From: a bacterium
GTDB taxonomy: Bacteria > UBP18 > UBA7526
Assembly (NCBI GenBank): GCA_030615855.1
Contig: JAUWYL010000011.1
Location: 1 to 37,029, forward strand
Direction of reading: 5' to 3'
DNA length: 37,029 nt
Part shown: piece by piece, positions 19,844-27,558 of the stretch
Layout of the letters: every line of letters starts with the position of its first letter
How positions within the stretch are numbered: the first letter of the stretch is position 1
Program-made: the position numbers and the translations under genes
The notes under the pieces: generated by a model
Told to the model about the DNA's origin: nothing
Seen by the model: only the letters and a program-made list of their open reading frames with translations
Database searches by the model: none

Positions 19844-19880
19844 GAAAAATTCTGCTGTCCAGGTAATCGCGGACAGCAGA
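19842..19880 (-). terminator. Intrinsic terminator ending the Fe-S/sulfur-relay operon
   Basis: TCTGCTGTCC-10 nt-GGACAGCAGA perfect 10 bp stem, then ATTTTTCTT on the minus strand. Confidence 0.75.
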
Positions 19881-19935
19881 AGATTTTCCTCGGAAACAAA
19901 TAATGATGTTTATCCAACTAAGTAGTAGCGTATCC

Positions 19936-20925
19936 TCACATTTTAGAGAATCCATATCCCAGGATTAATGATAAGGCACAGATCACAGATAAATAAAGGA
20001 ACAAGATTTTGGCACCAAATTCTTTTCTGACAACTAAGATGGTGCCGAAACTGGTAACTGGTCCAACAATAAGTAACACTAAACCTGCTCCGATATTCAT
20101 TCCTTGAGTTAAGAAGGCGTGGACTAAGGGAACGCTCGCTGTAGAACAGATGTACATGGCCAATCCAAAAGGAAGGGCAAAGAGATAGCCGAATCCTCCG
20201 CTCAGGTAATTTCCGATTAACCTTCCTACCGGGGTGATAACCATGATGAGAGCTGCCAGGACTAAACCCAGGGCTAACTCTGGGCCGATCTCCTTTACCA
20301 GATCGACAAAGCCAAATTTAAAGACAGATCTTACTCTTTCTGATATGCTCTTTCTATCCTTTCTCTCTAAATACTTCTCTGGTTTTTTCAAAAAAGTCTT
20401 TTTACAACGAGAAGAGCAGAAATAGTAGGTTCTATTCTCATATTCTGTGCTCAATCCTTTTTCTCTATCTACGCACATCCCGCAGACCGGATCCTCCTCA
20501 TGGAGGAGATGGGGAGTAGGAGAGAGTCTAAAGAGGTTTCCCATTAGACCAAGGGTTAAACCAATTAAGATAACAGAGAGACATAAGAAGAGAGTGAAGT
20601 TTAATCCCAAGAGGCGATAGGTAACCAGAAAGGCAGTGGCTGAGGTAGCGGGAGTAGCGACAAGAAAGGCTAAAACTGGCCCGAGACGTGCCCCTTTTTT
20701 GAAGAAACTAATGGCCACCGGTAGAGCACCAAAGCAGCATAGAGGAAGAAGTGCCCCGGAAATGGTGGCATAAATAATGGGTCTTATCCCTCTTCCTCCC
20801 AGGTGCCTCTCCACCCAGGCGGTGGGAAGGAACTCATGGATGAGGCCGCTCAGGAAGAATCCAAGGGCCAGAACAGGAAATAGTTCAATAAGATAATCTT
20901 TGAGAACAACTAAAAGTTGAATCAT
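19936..20925 (-). CDS. DUF318/ArsP-family permease with an internal YHS domain
   Basis: LPLCCFGALP, AFLVATPAT, MYICSTASVP repeat halves; central DPVCGM..YYFCS..C..TF...PEKY. Confidence 0.85.
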   Translation of the reverse strand: MIQLLVVLKDYLIELFPVLALGFFLSGLIHEFLPTAWVERHLGGRGIRPIIYATISGALLPLCCFGALPVAISFFKKGARLGPVLAFLVATPATSATAFLVTYRLLGLNFTLFLCLSVILIGLTLGLMGNLFRLSPTPHLLHEEDPVCGMCVDREKGLSTEYENRTYYFCSSRCKKTFLKKPEKYLERKDRKSISERVRSVFKFGFVDLVKEIGPELALGLVLAALIMVITPVGRLIGNYLSGGFGYLFALPFGLAMYICSTASVPLVHAFLTQGMNIGAGLVLLIVGPVTSFGTILVVRKEFGAKILFLYLSVICALSLILGYGFSKM

Positions 20926-21327
20926 TTATTTAATTATTTTAGTGATCTTGGAACGATAGATGTTTCTGTCTCTTGTTTTCTTGTTGTAAAGCCAGCTAAA
21001 AACGAAGGAGAGGATGAAGAAGGAGAATCCCAAGATGAGACCCCCTGTCTGGAGATTGGTAATCTTTATTCCTAATACCATGCCTAAGATTAAGGCTACA
21101 AGGGGGAGAGTATAGAATAGAAGAGCTCCTTTTAGTATTAGAGAAGAGGGAATCTCTATTCTGACTCTCTCACCCACCTTGGCCCCGATACTATTTTCTA
21201 CTTCTGCGATCATAGTATTTCCCCTCCTTAAGCTACAGAGACCACAGGCCCGGCAAGCGCTCTTCCTCTCAACCTCCACCTGAGCGAGATCTCCTTCTAC
21301 TTTGATTATTCTTCCTTCTTCTCTCAT
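20926..21327 (-). CDS. RseC/MucC family membrane protein
   Basis: EEGRII.V.G..A.V, ACRACGLC, GAKVGERV.I, YTLPL, two TM helices. Confidence 0.85.
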   Translation of the reverse strand: MREEGRIIKVEGDLAQVEVERKSACRACGLCSLRRGNTMIAEVENSIGAKVGERVRIEIPSSLILKGALLFYTLPLVALILGMVLGIKITNLQTGGLILGFSFFILSFVFSWLYNKKTRDRNIYRSKITKIIK

Positions 21328-22262
21328 CTCAACATTCCCTTGACCACAACGTCGATGGCCTCTTCTTTGGAAAGCCCCCGGGCCATTACCGTCTCGAGCT
21401 GTTTCTTATCGATACTGCCGATGGCTGCCTCATGGGTCACTCTTGCTCTATCATCGATTACTTGAACAATGGGCAAGGCCTTTGCTTGCGCCTTTCCCTG
21501 GACGATCTCGATACAGTCCACATGTCCCCTGCTGAAGGGAGCATTCCCCTCTGTGATTCCGATGGCCATGGTCTTTGCTCTATCCTTGACCGCTACCCGG
21601 GCCTTGATGAGGCTCTTGGCATATGGCCCATCCAATATCGCCTTCTCCTTTATTCGGATGTCGTCATCCCCCTTTCCATATACCTTGACCACCAGTTCTG
21701 CTACTGCCTTCTCCTTTGCCCGGGCCTCATAGTCAATCCTTAACTTGCCAACCTTTCCCTTAATTAAGGTGAAACTGGTATCGAGCCTTCCTCCCTTATC
21801 AATATATATCTTACCCTGAGGGATGACCTCTGCCCCCCCTCTCTCTCCATGGTAATGGGTCTCGTGATAGCCTAAGAAGGCCCCCTTCCCGATTCTGAAC
21901 TCGGCGCTCATAACATGCTTGATCTTTACTGCATTGGGGAAGGTGCAGTGGGCAATTAGGGTAATGCTCGAGCCATCCGCTATCTTTACGTCAACATAAA
22001 TCTCCTGCAGTCCCCTTTTGGGAAGGATGCCGAAACAGAGATAGACTGGTTTCTCGATTCTATATCCCTTTTGAGTAATAAGGGTTATCTTTACCCCTTT
22101 GGGCAGTTCCTCTGCCTGAAAGACTCTTATCCCTTCTATCTTTCTCTTCCCTAAGATCCTGTTCTTATTTACTACCAGAGAAGCACACTTAGGGTCTCTT
22201 AAGACCTTGGGATCGCCACCTGCTTTTCGATAGGCCCTGACCATATTCTCATAATCATTCAT
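21324..22262 (-). CDS. SufB/SufD-family beta-helix protein (SmsB-like)
   Basis: PVYLCFG, IAHCTFPNA, GHVDCIEIV, RVTHEAAIGSID..QLETVMARGL; short (312 aa) and follows sufC. Confidence 0.9.
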   Translation of the reverse strand: MNDYENMVRAYRKAGGDPKVLRDPKCASLVVNKNRILGKRKIEGIRVFQAEELPKGVKITLITQKGYRIEKPVYLCFGILPKRGLQEIYVDVKIADGSSITLIAHCTFPNAVKIKHVMSAEFRIGKGAFLGYHETHYHGERGGAEVIPQGKIYIDKGGRLDTSFTLIKGKVGKLRIDYEARAKEKAVAELVVKVYGKGDDDIRIKEKAILDGPYAKSLIKARVAVKDRAKTMAIGITEGNAPFSRGHVDCIEIVQGKAQAKALPIVQVIDDRARVTHEAAIGSIDKKQLETVMARGLSKEEAIDVVVKGMLR

Positions 22263-22266
22263 CCCA

Positions 22267-22995
22267 TTACTCCTTTAGTTTGCCGGGAAACTTATGGGTG
22301 GGACATGGCTTGCAGTGTAACTTAAAGTAATCCATCTCCTCTTTCGGCCTGCCGGTCTTAATGATGAGGCCGTCACACATCAAGGATACCCTATCAGAGA
22401 TAGAAGCCATCTCCTCACGATGGGTAATGAGGAATATGGTGCTCCCTTCCTTTCTCATACTCTTGATGACATTCAAGATATCATCGAGAGAGAGCATATC
22501 GATCCCGGAGTCTGGCTCATCGAGTATGGCCAATTTGGGCCTCATGGCAATTACGCTGGCAAGCTCGATCCTCTTCCTCTCTCCACCAGAGAGGGTCTTA
22601 TTCACTGCTCGATTTAAGAATTCCTTGGGATTTAAGGCAACTAATTCTAAGGCGTGAGTTACTCTTTTGCTATCCTCCCTATTCTTCATTCCTAAGGAGA
22701 GATACTCCCTTGCTAATAGTCCCTCGAAGCGAGCCGACTCCTGCCAGGCAAGGGTTAAGCCCCTCCTCGCCCTCTGGGAGATGGAGAGATTGGTAATATC
22801 ATTTCCTAAGAATCTAATTTTTCCTTCCTGTGGCTTATACCCTTCGCTTCCCATGAGGCAATAGGCCAAAGAACTCTTTCCGGCACCATTCAGCCCTAAT
22901 ATGGTATGGATCTCACCCTTCTTTACTTCAAGGTTTATTCCCCGCAGTATGGGATGCCCGTTTAAGGTCAATTTCAAACCCTTTATCTCAAGCAT
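22267..22995 (-). CDS. sufC: SufC-like Fe-S assembly ABC ATPase (SmsC-like)
   Basis: GLNGAGKS, LSGGERKRIE, ILDEPDSGID, ITH; C-terminal C-X20-C-X2-C. Confidence 0.9.
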   Translation of the reverse strand: MLEIKGLKLTLNGHPILRGINLEVKKGEIHTILGLNGAGKSSLAYCLMGSEGYKPQEGKIRFLGNDITNLSISQRARRGLTLAWQESARFEGLLAREYLSLGMKNREDSKRVTHALELVALNPKEFLNRAVNKTLSGGERKRIELASVIAMRPKLAILDEPDSGIDMLSLDDILNVIKSMRKEGSTIFLITHREEMASISDRVSLMCDGLIIKTGRPKEEMDYFKLHCKPCPTHKFPGKLKE

Positions 22996-22997
22996 TT

Positions 22998-23276
22998 TTA
23001 GCCTCCAGCAATAGGGGGGAAGATATGGAGAATATCGCCCTCCTTTAAAGCAGCTTTCTTGATCTCTTTCCTATCCACAGTATGGCCGGAGAGGAGGAGG
23101 ATGTAATAATTCTTTATCGCTCCATCAGAATTATAGAGTTGATCAGTAAACCGGGAACCGAACTGCCTCTTCAACTCCTCTAAGGCCTGGGCTACAGTAG
23201 GGGCATTCAAGGAAACCTTGCTCTTCCCTATCTTTTCTCTTAAGGTAGTATAGAAACGAACCGTAATCTGAGCCAT
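22998..23276 (-). CDS. MoaD/ThiS/SAMP-family ubiquitin-like sulfur carrier
   Basis: Beta-grasp pattern ITVRFY..LRE, LKEGD.LHIFPPIAGG C-terminus. Confidence 0.92.
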   Translation of the reverse strand: MAQITVRFYTTLREKIGKSKVSLNAPTVAQALEELKRQFGSRFTDQLYNSDGAIKNYYILLLSGHTVDRKEIKKAALKEGDILHIFPPIAGG

Positions 23277-23497
23277 TAGACTGCTTCCACTCTTTTCACT
23301 TCCGGAACCTTAGACTTAATGGCCTTCTCTACCATATCCCGTAGGGTCAATGAAGCAGCGGGACAGCCGGCACAGGCGCCAATCAACCTCACCTTGACCA
23401 CCCCTTCATCCGTCACTTCGATTAAGTCTACACTTCCACCATGCATGGCGAGCATCTCCCTCACCTCTTTTAGGGCCTCCTCAATCCTTTCCTTCAC
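23276..23497 (-). CDS. NifU/Nfu C-terminal domain Fe-S carrier
   Basis: HGGSVDL, VKVRLIGACAGCP, VPEVKRVEAV. Confidence 0.93.
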   Translation of the reverse strand: MKERIEEALKEVREMLAMHGGSVDLIEVTDEGVVKVRLIGACAGCPAASLTLRDMVEKAIKSKVPEVKRVEAV

Positions 23498-23813
23498 CCC
23501 GCACCTCCTCTCCTATCCAACTCAAATAATCCCTATTCCCGCCTGTAATGGGTAGGGCAATTATTTCGGGAACCTCATAGCTATGTATCTTCTTAACCAG
23601 AGTGATAATCCCCTTAAGCATTTTCTTCTTTGTTTTGGCTAATAGTAAAACCTCAAGAGAGGAATCTATCTTGCCTTTCCACCAGAAAAAAGAGTCCACT
23701 TTGGGAATAATATTTACACAGGCCACCTTTCGCTTCTCTAATAATACTTCCTTTATTCTTGCTGCTTCTCTCTTCGAAGAACAGGCAATCATAACCACAA
23801 TACTGTCGGTCAT
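23481..23813 (-). CDS. cutA: Divalent-cation tolerance protein CutA
   Basis: ACVNIIP, SFFWWKG, E.LLLAKT, HSYEVPEII, YLSWI. Confidence 0.93.
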   Translation of the reverse strand: MTDSIVVMIACSSKREAARIKEVLLEKRKVACVNIIPKVDSFFWWKGKIDSSLEVLLLAKTKKKMLKGIITLVKKIHSYEVPEIIALPITGGNRDYLSWIGEEVRGEGKD

Positions 23814-24184
23814 TCTTCCTTCTCCAAGATTATCCTTTCCCCAGGAGAAACCTTTTTGAACTCCTGAGGATTACCCAAAAGACGACCCACCAGATTAACC
23901 CCGCTAGCTGGCCTGATTTCCTCTCCTTTACTTATCGGTGTAGGACCGAAGAAGATGCAGAACGCCGATTCCGGAGGCCAGTAACCTAAATCACCTTTCT
24001 CCACCACCTCTTTAGGGTTATCCAGTTCCGTCTTTACCGGTATGGAGAAATAGATCTCGTCACCCCAGGTATTAACTTTCGCCTCAAAGGGTAAAGCATC
24101 CCAGATAAGAGAAGCGGTCTTTGATTCGTTCAGCTCTGCTGACATCTCTATTCTGCCTGCTTTAATTCGAATTCTCTTAGCCAT
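23810..24184 (-). CDS. Cyclophilin-like fold protein (TM1367/DUF369-like)
   Basis: LPFEAKVNTWGDEIYF, GDLGYWPP..AFCIFFGPTP, EIRPASGVN. Confidence 0.82.
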   Translation of the reverse strand: MAKRIRIKAGRIEMSAELNESKTASLIWDALPFEAKVNTWGDEIYFSIPVKTELDNPKEVVEKGDLGYWPPESAFCIFFGPTPISKGEEIRPASGVNLVGRLLGNPQEFKKVSPGERIILEKEE

Positions 24185-25049
24185 TTTTGCCTCCTGATTT
24201 CAATTCAATGACCTCTGCTACCCCCTCTTTGGCATCGAGATATAATAAACGATTGCGTAGGGGCTTCCCAATCCCAGTTAATATCTTCACCACCTCTTGC
24301 ACCTGCCAGGAGGTGATCATGGTAGGGGTGGCAGAAGGATTACCAAAGGCGACCTCATCCCCTCTCTGGGGATACTCTTTCTTCTTACCATAGATGAGAG
24401 AAAGCCCCTCATCCTCTGGGAAAATAGTCATTACCTGACCAACGAATCCCGCGATAGCACCATAGACGAAGGGGATGCCCAGTTCCCGGACGGCCTTCTC
24501 TACCATAAAACGAGGAGGGAGGAGGTCCAGCCCATCCGCCACCACATCCGCGCCCTTCAGGACCTCTTTTACATTCCCTTCAGTAATGGTATCCGTATAA
24601 GAAGTAACGATGAGACTGGAGTTTATAGCCCTCACCCTATCTGCTGCTATCTGGGCCTTATACCTACCGATATCTCCCTCAGTGGACATGAGTTGGCGGT
24701 TTAGGGTGGATTCTGTAAAGCGATCATTGTCAGCGATGATGATGTGGCCGATCCCCTGTCGGGCCAAGAGTTCTATTATCCCTCCTCCCAATCCCCCGGC
24801 ACCAATAACCGCTACCGTTGATTTGAGGAGTTTAATCTGACCCCTCATCCCAATGGTCCCGATATTTCTCTGATAACGTAAGGGGACGATTCCCTTCTCT
24901 AAAGCGGTGATCTCCACTTCCTTTTTTGAAAGATCGAATTCCTTTGCTACCGTTTCAACAGATTTTAGAGAAAGCCCTCGATATTCCTGGCCATTGGGCG
25001 CCCTATGCCTCTCCTCCAGTTCCTTCAGACGCTTGACAAAATCCTCCAT
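24177..25049 (-). CDS. ThiF/MoeB/HesA-family E1-like adenylyltransferase, cysteine-free
   Basis: RYQRNI, VIGAGGLG, D.D.F..S.LNRQ, K, DGLD; no Cys anywhere in the 290 aa. Confidence 0.92.
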   Translation of the reverse strand: MEDFVKRLKELEERHRAPNGQEYRGLSLKSVETVAKEFDLSKKEVEITALEKGIVPLRYQRNIGTIGMRGQIKLLKSTVAVIGAGGLGGGIIELLARQGIGHIIIADNDRFTESTLNRQLMSTEGDIGRYKAQIAADRVRAINSSLIVTSYTDTITEGNVKEVLKGADVVADGLDLLPPRFMVEKAVRELGIPFVYGAIAGFVGQVMTIFPEDEGLSLIYGKKKEYPQRGDEVAFGNPSATPTMITSWQVQEVVKILTGIGKPLRNRLLYLDAKEGVAEVIELKSGGKNG

Positions 25050-25090
25050 TGTCTCTCCTTCTAATTTGGATCTGGGATTTAATTTAATCT

Positions 25091-25116
25091 GTCCCCCTGC
25101 CTGTCAGTAGACAGAC
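25091..25116. repeat. Small palindromic element between nadA and the thiF-like gene
   Basis: cctgcCTGTC-agta-GACAGacg. Confidence 0.4.
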
Positions 25117-25120
25117 GTAG

Positions 25121-26026
25121 TTATCGCTTAAGCATCCCGTTTAGAGACTTCTTTGCCCTCTCGCACACTCCTATAGGAATCTTGATCTCATATCTCATCT
25201 TCTCTAAGGACTGGACAACTTCTTTTAAAGTAATCAGTTTCATACTGGGGCAGACGAGGTTCTCACTTGCTGGATAGAAATTTTTATCCGGGATCTCCTT
25301 CTTCAACCTATGAATGAGGCCCATCTCTGTACCGATAATAAACTCCTTCGCTTCACATTCTTTGGCATATTCCAGCATACCATTTGTTGAGAGGGTCTCG
25401 TCTGCTAAATCAATTACTGATAGACGACATTCTGGATGGACAAGGACTTTGGCCTGAGGATGCTCTTCCTTAGCTTTTAATATATCCTTGGGCAATAGAT
25501 TGTAGTGTGTTGGGCAGAATCCCTTCCAGAGTATAAAATTCTTATTCGTTTTGCTTTCCAAATATCTTCCCAGGTGCTCATCAGGAATGAAGAGGATTTT
25601 TTCTTCTCTTAAAGAATTTACTACTTCAATGCCGTTGGCTGAGGTGCAGCAGATGTCTGACTCTGCCTTCATTTTAGCACTAGAATTGACATAGCAGACA
25701 ACCGCTGCCTGAGGATTTTCCTTTTTCTTCTTGCGCAGTTCAGAAAGAGTTATCATCTCTGCTAAAGGACAGCTCGCTTCTTTAATCGGAAGGAGGACTG
25801 TCTTCTCTGGAGATAGAATAGCAGCTGATTCTGCCATAAAGTGAACCCCGCAGAAGACAATAACCTTAGCATCTGTTGCTGCTGCCTTCCTTGAAAGGTC
25901 TAAGGAGTCGCCCACCAGATCCGCTAACTCTTGAATTTCTGGCCGCTGATAATTGTGGGCTAAGATGATGGCCTTTCTCTTTTCCTTTAGTTCCCTTATC
26001 TTCTCTTTAAGTCTCTTATCCTTCAT
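25121..26026 (-). CDS. nadA: Quinolinate synthase
   Basis: ILAHNYQ, GDSL, FCGVHFMAE, ASCPLA, YVNSS, CTS.N, GFCPTH, HPEC, CPSMK. Confidence 0.97.
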   Translation of the reverse strand: MKDKRLKEKIRELKEKRKAIILAHNYQRPEIQELADLVGDSLDLSRKAAATDAKVIVFCGVHFMAESAAILSPEKTVLLPIKEASCPLAEMITLSELRKKKKENPQAAVVCYVNSSAKMKAESDICCTSANGIEVVNSLREEKILFIPDEHLGRYLESKTNKNFILWKGFCPTHYNLLPKDILKAKEEHPQAKVLVHPECRLSVIDLADETLSTNGMLEYAKECEAKEFIIGTEMGLIHRLKKEIPDKNFYPASENLVCPSMKLITLKEVVQSLEKMRYEIKIPIGVCERAKKSLNGMLKR

Positions 26027-26049
26027 TATGCCTTTTTGCTTTCTTACCT

Positions 26050-26481
26050 TTATCTTTCCATCTCCAGACAGTCGCCTGCTTTTACCCTTCCTCCTTTAAT
26101 TACCCGGGCAAAGACACCCTCTTTGGGCATGATACATTCTCCCAAGCGTCTGAAAATAGCGCAAGGAGCAGGACACTCTTTGCCTATCTGAGTAATTTCT
26201 AAAATAATTCTTTTGCCAATGAATATTTTCTGTCCCTTAGCCAAAGAGAGAAGATCAACTCCTTCAGTAGTGAGGTTCTCAGCAAAATCGCCCGGTCCCA
26301 CCTTTAGCCCCTTCTCTCGCACTCTTTGAATAGTCTCCAGAGCCAAGAGACTTACCTGGCGGCCAGAGCCAGCATGGGCATCGCCTACCAGACCATAATC
26401 CTTGCGCAGGCGACCAGTAACGATTTCCCTCTTGGCCACACCTTTTTTCTTACTCCGTAAGACAGCAACAATCCTACCCAT
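26050..26481 (-). CDS. MOSC-domain protein
   Basis: GLVGDAHAG..RQVSLL, PGDFAENLTT, QIGKEC...C......G.CIMPKEG.FARV. Confidence 0.9.
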   Translation of the reverse strand: MGRIVAVLRSKKKGVAKREIVTGRLRKDYGLVGDAHAGSGRQVSLLALETIQRVREKGLKVGPGDFAENLTTEGVDLLSLAKGQKIFIGKRIILEITQIGKECPAPCAIFRRLGECIMPKEGVFARVIKGGRVKAGDCLEMER

Positions 26482-27453
26482 GAGAAGGCAAGGCCTTCTC
26501 CCGCTCTTCGAGCAGCACTTCTATGGCAGCGATATCTTCTTTAGAAAGCGTCCATTCGCTGGCGACAGTGGTCTCCTCAATCTGGGAGGGATGCCGAGCA
26601 CCTACGATGGCTGCCGTTACTTCTGGTCTACACAGTACCCAGGTCACTGCCAGCTGGGCCAGGGTCTTACCATTCTTCTCAGCGATGGGGCGCAATTTCT
26701 CAACCAGTTTGAGATTGGGAGAGAGTTCTGGTTCCTGAAAGTGGGGATTCTTTGTCTTTCGCCAGTCATCCAAAGGTAGATTCTGGATGCCTTCTTTAGT
26801 ATACTTACCGGTGAGCAGGCCACACTCCATGGGACTATATACGATTACTCCGATATCATGGGCTTTGCAATAGGCCAGTAGTCCATCTTCAATACCCTGG
26901 GTAAGCATGCTGTAGGGCGGCTGGAGGGATGCTATGGGATGGATGGGGCGAATGCGTTCGAGTTGTTCTATACTGAAATTGGATACTCCGATATAGCGGA
27001 CTTTTCCCTCTCTCACCAGATCCGCCATAGCGCTCCAGGCCTTCTCTATCTCCTGGTCAGGGTCTGGCCAGTGAATCTGGTAGAGGTCGATTACTTCGAT
27101 ATCCAGTCGTTTCAGGCTGGCCTCTACCTCATAGCGAATGCTCTTTCTTTTTAATCGACCAGAGATCTTCCCTCTCTCATTCCAGACCAGACCACACTTA
27201 GTGGCTATGATGACCTTTCCCGCAGGCCCTTAATGGCCCGGCCCACAACCTCCTCGGAGTGACCCAGTCCATAGACTGGAGCGGTATCTATCCAATTCAC
27301 TCCCTGTTCTAAGGCGCAGCGAACGGTAGCGATTGACTCTTCATCGTCCTGTGGTCCCCAGCCAAAAGCCCATCCCCCACCCCCCATGGCCCAGGTGCCT
27401 AGTCCGATAGGGGATAATTCAAGATCTGTGTAGCCTAATCTTCTTTTTTTCAT
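26474..27453 (-). pseudogene. Aldo/keto reductase split by a 1-nt deletion (pseudogene or sequencing error)
   Basis: 5' ORF has GLGTWAMGG and WIDTAPVYG. Adding one A at 27216-27218 restores REKVIIATKCG...IDLYQIHWP, which joins the 184 aa ORF (GKVRYIGVSNF, QPPYS, YSP). Confidence 0.9.
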
Positions 27454-27485: not shown

Positions 27486-27558
27486 ACTATACCATATATA
27501 AGCACTTTGGACAATTTTAAACTAATTTTATTGTAACATATACGAGTATTTTGGTCAA
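27486..27558 (-). promoter_or_regulatory. Two tandem sigma70-like promoters upstream of the AKR-MOSC-nadA-Sms operon
   Basis: TTGACC-17-TACAAT (27558-27530) and TTGTCC-17-TATAGT (27514-27486), both with extended -10 TG. Confidence 0.7.

Follow-up and report, generated by a model that had tools for sequence, protein, structure and literature searches.

A SUF-like minimal Fe-S system encoded together with a MOSC, E1 and ubiquitin-like protein set that may serve tungsten-cofactor synthesis in a bacterium

The stretch of DNA analysed here (the window; 37,029 nucleotides, contig JAUWYL010000011.1 of assembly GCA_030615855.1) comes from a bacterium of the GTDB lineage UBP18; UBA7526. It is contig C40 of the source genome (G000), which measures 1.375 Mb in 45 contigs and is 93.6% complete. 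Genes were identified from the list of open reading frames (ORFs) and from scans with Pfam and NCBIfam models. Eleven genes follow one another on the minus strand in the order MOSC, NadA, E1, cyclophilin-like (CypL), CutA, Nfu, Ubl, SmsC, SmsB, RseC and ArsP/YHS permease (Table 1). E1 is a ThiF/MoeB-family adenylyltransferase, Ubl a ubiquitin-like protein ending in GG, and SmsC and SmsB form a SUF-like minimal system (SMS) of Fe-S cluster assembly. An earlier reading made from the letters alone (the sequence-only reading) had described the nine genes from E1 to the permease as overlapping or spaced by 4 nt or less. Gene order, domains and junctions were confirmed: the latter range from -17 to +4 nt and measure, in order, -8, -4, -17, -1, +2, +4, -4 and 0 nt. 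Ubl thus starts 1 nt into the end of Nfu and SmsC starts 2 nt beyond Ubl. The spacing is 71 nt between NadA and E1 and 23 nt between MOSC and NadA. We infer that the unit is co-transcribed. The sequence-only reading had further proposed that thiocarboxylate sulfur carried by Ubl is coupled to SMS cluster assembly, with the alternative that E1, Ubl and MOSC serve Mo/W-pterin synthesis and are merely co-transcribed with smsCB.

Table 1. Features of the unit and of its surroundings in the window
Feature	Position	Strand	Basis or remark
HypE terminator-like hairpin	27689-27670		upstream of promoter matches
Two sigma-70-like promoter matches	27558-27530, 27514-27486 (span 27486..27558)	-	consensus match, gap after HypE terminator
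Aldo/keto reductase (AKR), frameshifted near 27214-27217	26474..27453	-	ORFs, Pfam
Small MOSC protein, 143 aa, invariant C103/C107/C116	26050..26481	-	Pfam, NCBIfam, alignment
Quinolinate synthase NadA, second copy (at this place in genus g1 only)	25121..26026	-	Pfam, NCBIfam
ThiF/MoeB-family E1 adenylyltransferase	24177..25049	-	Pfam, NCBIfam
Cyclophilin-like protein (CypL), PF04126, TM1367-like	23810..24184	-	Pfam
CutA	23481..23813	-	Pfam
Nfu-type carrier, NifU C-terminal domain, CxxC at 42/45	23276..23497	-	Pfam, NCBIfam
MoaD-type ubiquitin-like sulfur carrier (Ubl), 92 aa, C-terminal GG	22998..23276	-	Pfam, NCBIfam
SmsC ATPase, C207/C228/C231 predicted cluster ligands	22267..22995	-	NCBIfam, homology to MJ0035
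SmsB, 312 aa, SUFBD family	21324..22262	-	Pfam, homology to MJ0034
RseC-family membrane protein, C25-x2-C28-x2-C31	20926..21327	-	Pfam
ArsP_1 permease with inserted YHS metal-binding domain	19936..20925	-	Pfam; SO_0444-like in NCBIfam, under cut-off
Intrinsic-terminator-like hairpin, 12-bp stem, T run, end of unit	19850..19881	-	

The assignment of smsC-smsB as a genuine SMS, already made in the sequence-only reading, is well supported. The best match of SmsC was MJ0035 of M. jannaschii (PDB 9H78; 255 bits), as compared to 132 bits for T. thermophilus SufC, and its score with the TIGR01978 sufC model (177.8) stayed under the cut-off of 212.8. The C-X20-C-X2-C pattern that had been noticed at the SmsC C-terminus corresponds to C207, C228 and C231, which align residue for residue, with identical spacing, to MJ0035. 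In M. jannaschii SmsC, residues C218, C239 and C242 are reported to bind a [4Fe-4S] cluster in the cryo-EM structure (PMC12192291). Over 29 SmsC sequences from the surveyed loci described below, C228 and C231 were invariant and C207 was present in at least 90%. SmsB matched MJ0034 at 252 bits over residues 8-311, that is, over its full length. Its gene lies 4 nt from smsC and is the only SUFBD (PF01458) gene of the 93.6%-complete genome. As had been claimed, family scanning of the window ORFs found one short SufBD protein and no cysteine desulfurase, SufD or SufE. SmsB did not reach the NCBIfam SmsB model NF052511 (62.2 bits for a cut-off of 650). The 445-position model, of the 'exception' type, represents another SmsB clade, and the window protein belongs to the methanogen-type clade of about 312-316 aa. 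The closest named relative of SmsB, at 80% identity, is from Ca. Euphemobacter frigidus (phylum Ca. Auribacterota). In the SmsB tree the window's family sits on its own long branch inside an unresolved polytomy, so that no donor lineage can be named.

The window pair therefore resembles M. jannaschii SmsC2B2 (MJ0035/MJ0034; PDB 9H78, 9H7X, 9H7Y, 9HBL), its best match in the PDB, in the aligned cysteine triad, the single SufBD partner of about 312 aa, the smsC-smsB order and the lack of a desulfurase in G000. It differs in its bacterial host, in lying within an 11-gene unit that also encodes Nfu, CutA, CypL, RseC, the permease and Ubl/E1/MOSC, and in that same-genus and same-family relatives also carry IscS-IscU.

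The lack of a desulfurase was followed up in the whole genome and in its relatives. Among the genomes searched, the kin of G000 are five genomes of one family (G001 to G005); the next closest share only the domain. In G000, the best match to Aminotran_5 (PF00266) was an AGXT/BhcA-like aminotransferase at 103 bits. In the same-genus genome G002, locus L135 (G002:C71) reads Rrf2-IscS-IscU-NadA. At the syntenic site of G000 (C36:6040-7515), Rrf2 and NadA are kept and 1.8 kb with iscS-iscU is cleanly missing. This clean gap shows that the absence of the desulfurase in G000 is a real loss. Within the family, desulfurase-grade matches were found in G002, G004 and G005 (split gene) and not in G000, G001 and G003. 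The order of the SMS operon is identical in family genomes with and without IscS. One genus was seen to contain both SMS-only strains and strains with SMS and IscSU.

G000 contains a single ThiS/MoaD-family gene and a single ThiF-family gene, both of which lie inside the SMS operon. Ubl scored 37.3 bits with PF02597 (cut-off 22.5) and 62.1 with the archaeal MoaD family TIGR01687 (cut-off 49.5); it stayed under the bacterial moaD model TIGR01682 (30.3 for a cut-off of 66.15). E1 matched PF00899 at 175.6 bits as a single domain, with no rhodanese domain, and reached no curated MoeB, ThiF or UbaA equivalog (best scores of 147-159 bits for cut-offs of 275-450). It contains no cysteine at all. Classical MoeB and ThiF carry Zn-binding cysteine pairs or a catalytic cysteine; the window E1 can therefore have no Zn site. 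Among the 120 E1 relatives listed, the number of cysteines varied from 0 to 7, 2 being the commonest. A 57-aa N-terminal extension of E1, which could be assigned to no family, is conserved among relatives, many of which are full-length at about 60% identity and several of which are labelled Dehalococcoidia.

Two near-identical loci out of 51 metagenome E1 loci repeat the order seen in the window. No smsB was present at the remaining 49, many of which are on contigs of only a few kb. A tree built from 40 E1 sequences places the window clade as sister to a clade of 11 (99/97 support). Directly downstream of seven of these 11 E1 genes lies a Ubl gene of 94-96 aa, 41-47% identical to the window Ubl; none of the sister-clade E1 genes adjoins smsCB, mostly on short contigs. 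As E1 mostly precedes Ubl directly in the sister clade, the ancestral state is an adjacent E1-Ubl pair. In the window's family, CypL-CutA-Nfu came to lie between the two genes, and the pair became linked to smsCB. The contexts of the E1 loci, as judged from Pfam runs on 146 of 158 selected neighbouring ORFs, were varied: housekeeping genes, AOR with Fe-ADH (L089), Fe-ADH (L084), AOR (L118) or ArsR-ArsP (L087, L088). An FeS_assembly_P (DUF59-type) gene directly precedes E1 in three of the 49 non-family loci (L093, L101, L102). MoaE was found in none of the E1 loci scanned by Pfam. A function of Ubl in tRNA thiolation was considered and rejected, the PP-loop matches of G000 being limited to TilS, MnmA and LarE, with no TtuA/NcsA found.

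The genome of the host contains five AOR genes and a partial sixth. It also encodes moaA-moaC-moaB on another contig, and has moeA next to genes for an ABC transporter and a MobB-like protein. No PF00384 molybdopterin oxidoreductase gene was found in G000. Across the six family genomes, AOR and MoaC were each present in all six and MoaE (PF02391) in none, G000 included. Thus, for the genome search that the sequence-only reading had suggested, AORs, moaA and moaC were found, and MoaE and a cysteine desulfurase were not. The only Ubl and E1 of the genome occur together with five AORs and a W-pterin pathway, and Ubl passes the archaeal MoaD model.

The MOSC gene overlaps the start of E1 in two of the three genera of the family (by 4 nt in G003 and by 1 nt in G004); in genus g1, to which the window belongs, a duplicated NadA is inserted between the two. 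Outside the family, MOSC homologues of 42-55% identity (L142-L148) follow moaC directly, their operons reading moaA-moaC-MOSC-moaB; one of these also carries a gene resembling E1 and an ORF of 65 aa that ends in GG. C103, C107 and C116, in a C-x3-C-x8-C arrangement, are invariant in all eight aligned MOSC sequences. NCBIfam includes a MoaC/MOSC fusion family, and no solved homologue of MOSC was found by sequence.

The relationship between MOSC and MoaE was surveyed in 151 genomes, comprising G000, its five family relatives and 145 genomes from as many different other families. Of the 88 MoaC-positive genomes outside the family, 56 had MoaE only, 26 had this small MOSC only, four had both and two had neither (Fisher exact p = 6e-16, the genomes not being fully independent). 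MOSC and moaC are separated by 14-530 nt in 19 of the 30 genomes having both genes. The lack of MoaE is not an oddity of the window's family, an idea ruled out by its being missing in 28 of the 88 genomes. Overall, the data show that the small three-cysteine MOSC is a protein of the molybdenum-cofactor pathway and that genomes have, almost exclusively, either this MOSC or MoaE. The small MOSC is a candidate non-orthologous substitute for the large subunit of molybdopterin synthase, and we infer a role for it in dithiolene synthesis. A genome paper on Dehalobacter (2016) mentions in passing that MOSC proteins may replace molybdopterin synthase, and one on Caldithrix lists MOSC in a molybdenum-cofactor locus. 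A systematic treatment of the alternation was searched for in the literature and none was found. The alternation fills a long-noted gap, as about 30% of the sampled MoaC-bearing genomes have MOSC instead of MoaE, and it offers the small MOSC as a concrete enzyme candidate for molybdopterin synthesis in many anaerobes, AOR-rich ones included. The window MOSC is of the same subfamily as that of the moaA-moaC-MOSC-moaB operons of MoaE-less anaerobes such as those of the Dehalobacter and Caldithrix papers, with MoaE likewise absent. It differs in lying away from moaC, coupled to E1 at the head of an SMS operon.

Two further MOSC matches were noted. A second MOSC domain of G000 (C34:1190-3749, L137) is fused to DUF123 and lies beside lipoyl synthase and lipoate ligase genes. 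Another match (G093:C11:14994-15386) contains three in-frame TAA codons, which point to a pseudogene or else to a different genetic code.

The neighbourhood of smsCB was surveyed with one genome per species, which gave 49 smsB loci, three from the window's family and 46 others from Chloroflexota, Omnitrophota, Nitrospirota, Methanosarcinales, Woesearchaeota, Altiarchaeales and others. Neighbours were counted by searching same-strand ORFs within -5/+4 kb with the window proteins. Ubl and E1 were beside smsB at all three family loci and at none of the 46 others. The corresponding counts for family and other loci were 2/3 and 41/46 for SmsC, 2/3 and 7/46 for CutA, 2/3 and 5/46 for Nfu, 1/3 and 7/46 for the ArsP-type permease, and 2/3 and 1/46 for CypL. 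A search for divergent Ubl proteins was made by running Pfam on the 182 of 367 unassigned ORFs that lie on the same strand about 2.5 kb upstream to 1.5 kb downstream, and on five ORFs of L009/L010; no ThiS or ThiF match was obtained outside the family. That small ORFs beside distant smsCB hide an unrecognised Ubl was considered and rejected: those of 74-100 aa were Zn_ribbon_8, thioredoxin, GatC or unassigned, and none was ThiS. Finally, a close E1 orthologue was found in none of five whole genomes having Nfu/CutA-smsCB, the best identity being 33-35%, in two of the five. Conservation therefore does not support the relay from Ubl to SMS that the sequence-only reading had proposed. The linkage of Ubl/E1 with smsCB is lineage-specific, confined to one family, and probably regulatory.

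Other genes recur beside smsCB across phyla, namely CutA, Nfu, CDF cation-efflux and ArsP transporters and Rrf2 (L011, L013, L029, L030, L034, L035, L041, L044, L056 and others). Zn_ribbon_8 recurs between Nfu and CutA or SmsC, and further neighbours are thioredoxin or glutaredoxin, XdhC, Nitro_FeMo-Co and OsmC. FdhD lies directly after SmsB in G002 and at two Dehalococcoidia loci (L008:3583-4278; L034:11051-11767; L035:7410-8099) and is not present at the G000 locus. CutA, Nfu, the zinc-ribbon protein, the CDF/ArsP transporters and FdhD are thus better candidates than Ubl/E1 for general SMS accessory functions. At one Woesearchaeota locus (L022:7558-9210), the IscU (NifU_N) gene upstream of smsC is split by an intein carrying a LAGLIDADG endonuclease domain, and is itself preceded by an Aminotran_5 gene.

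In the window's family, the full order is AKR-CDF-MOSC-E1-CypL-CutA-Nfu-Ubl-SmsC-SmsB-[variable]-RseC. G000 has nothing in the variable slot, G002 has FdhD there and G003 an FdhD fragment. The slot of G004 is taken up by a 12-kb sulfur island (L134, G004:C51, 453-12207) with Thi4, DUF6775, a hexapeptide (serine-acetyltransferase-like) transferase, a ThiS-ThiF fusion, a second MoaD-type Ubl that is 76% identical, a PALP (cysteine-synthase-like) enzyme, HcyBio, radical-SAM genes, Rrf2, IscU, a LarE-like gene and a cysteine desulfurase. In G000, contig C20 carries a Thi4-SAT-CysM-HcyBio cluster (SAT, serine acetyltransferase) that lacks its own Ubl and E1; no DUF6775 gene was found in this genome.

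Our best explanation, which we regard as moderately probable, is that the unit is a cofactor-maturation super-operon in which MOSC, E1 and Ubl make the pterin dithiolene and are co-expressed with the SMS. Gene content and order, family memberships, the conservation pattern, the genome inventory and the MOSC/MoaE complementarity were demonstrated here; the chemistry that follows is a proposal. The host would be a small-genome anaerobe having two modules interleaved in one unit. In the first module, SmsC2B2 would build a [4Fe-4S] cluster on C207/C228/C231 of SmsC, by homology most likely from sulfide; Nfu would carry the cluster onward, and CutA, CypL, RseC and the ArsP/YHS permease would be accessory proteins. 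In the second, MOSC, E1 and Ubl would make up the only thiocarboxylate system of the cell. The cysteine-free E1 would adenylate the C-terminal glycine of Ubl, and sulfide, or a persulfide on another protein, would resolve the adenylate to the thiocarboxylate Ubl-COSH. Together with the three-cysteine MOSC, acting in place of MoaE, Ubl-COSH would then supply the dithiolene sulfurs of the pterin needed by the five tungsten AOR enzymes, with moaA, moaC, moaB, moeA and a tungstate-type ABC transporter encoded elsewhere in G000. Joint transcription of the two modules would follow from their both being maturation functions that depend on sulfide and Fe-S, and no hand-over of sulfur between Ubl and SmsCB would be required. 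Tungsten-cofactor synthesis is the most likely function of Ubl. Work on T. kodakarensis and M. maripaludis points by analogy in the same direction. In the published accounts, the Ubls of T. kodakarensis take part in W-cofactor synthesis and in tRNA thiolation and also conjugate to proteins; in Ubl-deficient strains, an Fe-S enzyme taken by the authors as Ubl-independent kept parent-level activity; and M. maripaludis is described as making Fe-S clusters from sulfide without Ubls. The alternative already named in the sequence-only reading is therefore the better one, because the linkage to smsCB is not conserved in other genomes and Ubl scores above the cut-off of a MoaD family in an AOR-rich genome; that MOSC alternates with MoaE speaks for it too. 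On the points that the sequence-only reading had itself named as refuting its main proposal, the results largely went against that proposal. Overall, the sequence-only interpretation was partly supported.

Several observations weigh against this explanation. MoaE, the canonical partner of MoaD, is absent, so that a proven acceptor for Ubl is lacking. The search for ThiS-family genes detected them in only 19 of 26 MOSC-type genomes as compared to 54 of 56 MoaE-type genomes, so that the MOSC route may not always need a Ubl, or may need none at all. The two modules are interleaved instead of lying side by side, with CypL-CutA-Nfu between E1 and Ubl, an order kept across three genera. In relatives, the smsCB locus draws sulfur-transfer genes, as seen with FdhD in G002 and two Dehalococcoidia and with the G004 island. 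Finally, the loss of iscS-iscU in G000 bears on the sulfur source of every pathway.

A direct relay, in which Ubl-COSH made by E1 would be the physiological sulfur donor of SmsC2B2 or Nfu, was weighed against the super-operon. SMS is regarded as ancestral among Fe-S machineries, and the window operon is a natural candidate in which to examine how sulfur enters it; if true, a relay through Ubl-COSH would give SMS the dedicated sulfurtransferase that it apparently lacks. The translational coupling of Ubl between Nfu and SmsC, in an order kept in three genera, the loss of the desulfurase in G000 and the lack of the classical acceptor MoaE argue for it, and the cysteine-free E1 is counted as keeping it alive. 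TtuB-COSH offers a chemical precedent, as the [4Fe-4S] cluster of TtuA receives sulfur from it. A 2026 review presents the sulfur route into SMS as an open question with no sulfurtransferase known. However, such a relay is improbable when confronted with the absence of Ubl and E1 from the 46 non-family smsCB loci, the lack of a close E1 orthologue in the five Nfu/CutA-smsCB genomes and the occurrence of the same operon in relatives having IscS-IscU. In addition, the SMS of M. jannaschii is reported to function in E. coli on sulfide alone (PMC12192291), and the T. kodakarensis strains mentioned above keep their Fe-S enzyme activity. A literature search for a link between Ubl proteins and SMS found none; the SMS-defining paper (Garcia et al.) and the supplements of the SMS papers lay outside its scope. 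We also hold to be improbable a dual version, in which one E1 would charge the single Ubl with sulfide and the thiocarboxylate would be handed both to SmsC2B2/Nfu and to the MOSC-dependent pterin pathway; if true, it would be the first dedicated route of sulfur delivery found for SMS. Sulfur could conversely depend on the SMS: SMS/Nfu would load a cluster on MOSC or on another partner, and the cluster or a bound sulfide would provide sulfur for Ubl thiocarboxylation or for sulfuration of the pterin. An E1 with neither cysteine nor rhodanese domain has no persulfide relay of its own, and the invariant MOSC cysteines, the MOSC-E1 overlap in two genera, the absence of IscS from G000 and the FeS_assembly_P gene preceding E1 at three loci all fit this idea. 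It is nevertheless unlikely, as a cluster on MOSC is purely hypothetical with no solved homologue to compare, MOSC lies elsewhere in moa operons away from smsCB, and E. coli MoaD is reported to be thiocarboxylated by sulfide in vitro (PMC11323500), which makes a donor protein unnecessary.

Two other functions were considered for the E1-Ubl pair. It could mainly serve cysteine, homocysteine or thiazole synthesis rather than pterin synthesis, and be clustered with SMS only as part of a general sulfide assimilation. The G004 island directly after SmsB, with its second Ubl, the Ubl-less cluster on C20 of G000 and the clustering of Thi4, DUF6775 and ThiS/ThiF described in a recent preprint point this way. 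We think it unlikely, since G004 keeps both Ubls, which implies distinct roles for the operon and island copies, and since the coupled partner of E1 is MOSC, a gene of the molybdenum-cofactor pathway. Moreover, G000 lacks DUF6775 and has only a sub-threshold JAB match (22.9 bits) for the release of cysteine from a Ubl adduct. The same match is all that a search for JAMM genes retrieved from G000, with none in the window, and it bears on the idea that Ubl is a SAMP/Urm1-like protein modifier regulating SmsCB or other targets. SAMP1 is indeed the second-best NCBIfam match of Ubl, and T. kodakarensis Ubls are reported both to carry sulfur and to conjugate. The score (51.9 bits) is however under the cut-off of 60 and E1 has no cysteine, so that we consider a modifier role very improbable.

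Returning to the super-operon, its E1-Ubl part can be compared to the MoaD-MoeB pairs of tungsten-cofactor/AOR clusters (described by Iyer et al. 2006, and represented by T. kodakarensis UblB). A GG-ending Ubl with a ThiF-family E1 in an AOR-rich genome is common to both, and the closest relatives of the window E1 are adjacent E1-Ubl pairs, two near AOR (L089, L118). The window's family differs by the lack of MoaE, the cysteine-free E1, and the separation of E1 from Ubl by three Fe-S-linked genes and their junction to smsCB. With classical SUF systems using SufS-SufE/SufU, the window shares a scaffold ATPase pair accompanied by a putative carrier of activated sulfur and a cluster carrier. It lacks a pyridoxal phosphate (PLP) desulfurase, SufD, SufE and SufU, and its candidate carrier is a thiocarboxylate Ubl rather than a persulfide protein. 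Thi4-DUF6775-ThiS/ThiF clusters, as outlined in the preprint, and CysO-CysM clusters find a likeness in the G004 cluster, with its Ubl paralogue after SmsB; the window itself has no Thi4, DUF6775 or CysM, and Thi4, SAT and CysM are on C20.

CypL has a solved homologue, TM1367, whose gene may adjoin the SUF genes of T. maritima. A literature search for a link of CutA or the cyclophilin-like protein to SUF found no describing paper.

The tandem promoters and the terminator that the sequence-only reading had placed around the unit stood in part. A terminator with a 12-bp stem and two promoter-like sites are present, but promoter-like matches over the region occur at chance level (13 found, for 11.7 +/- 3.4 expected from shuffles), so that only the position of the pair is suggestive. 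AKR, which sits between the promoter matches and MOSC, is intact (322 aa) in the family relative G004; in the window its frameshift reflects either a pseudogene or an assembly error. MOSC and NadA had been correctly placed just upstream of E1. NadA, however, is there only in genus g1, and is therefore not a conserved member of the unit. It is also a second copy, 82% identical to the other NadA of G000 (C36:6040-6873). The frameshifted AKR, the genus restriction of NadA and its duplication had not been noticed in the sequence-only reading. Further upstream on the same strand lie a Mrp/Mbh-type complex, HycI, HypA, HypF, HypD and HypE, which makes the whole stretch a neighbourhood of metal-cofactor maturation.

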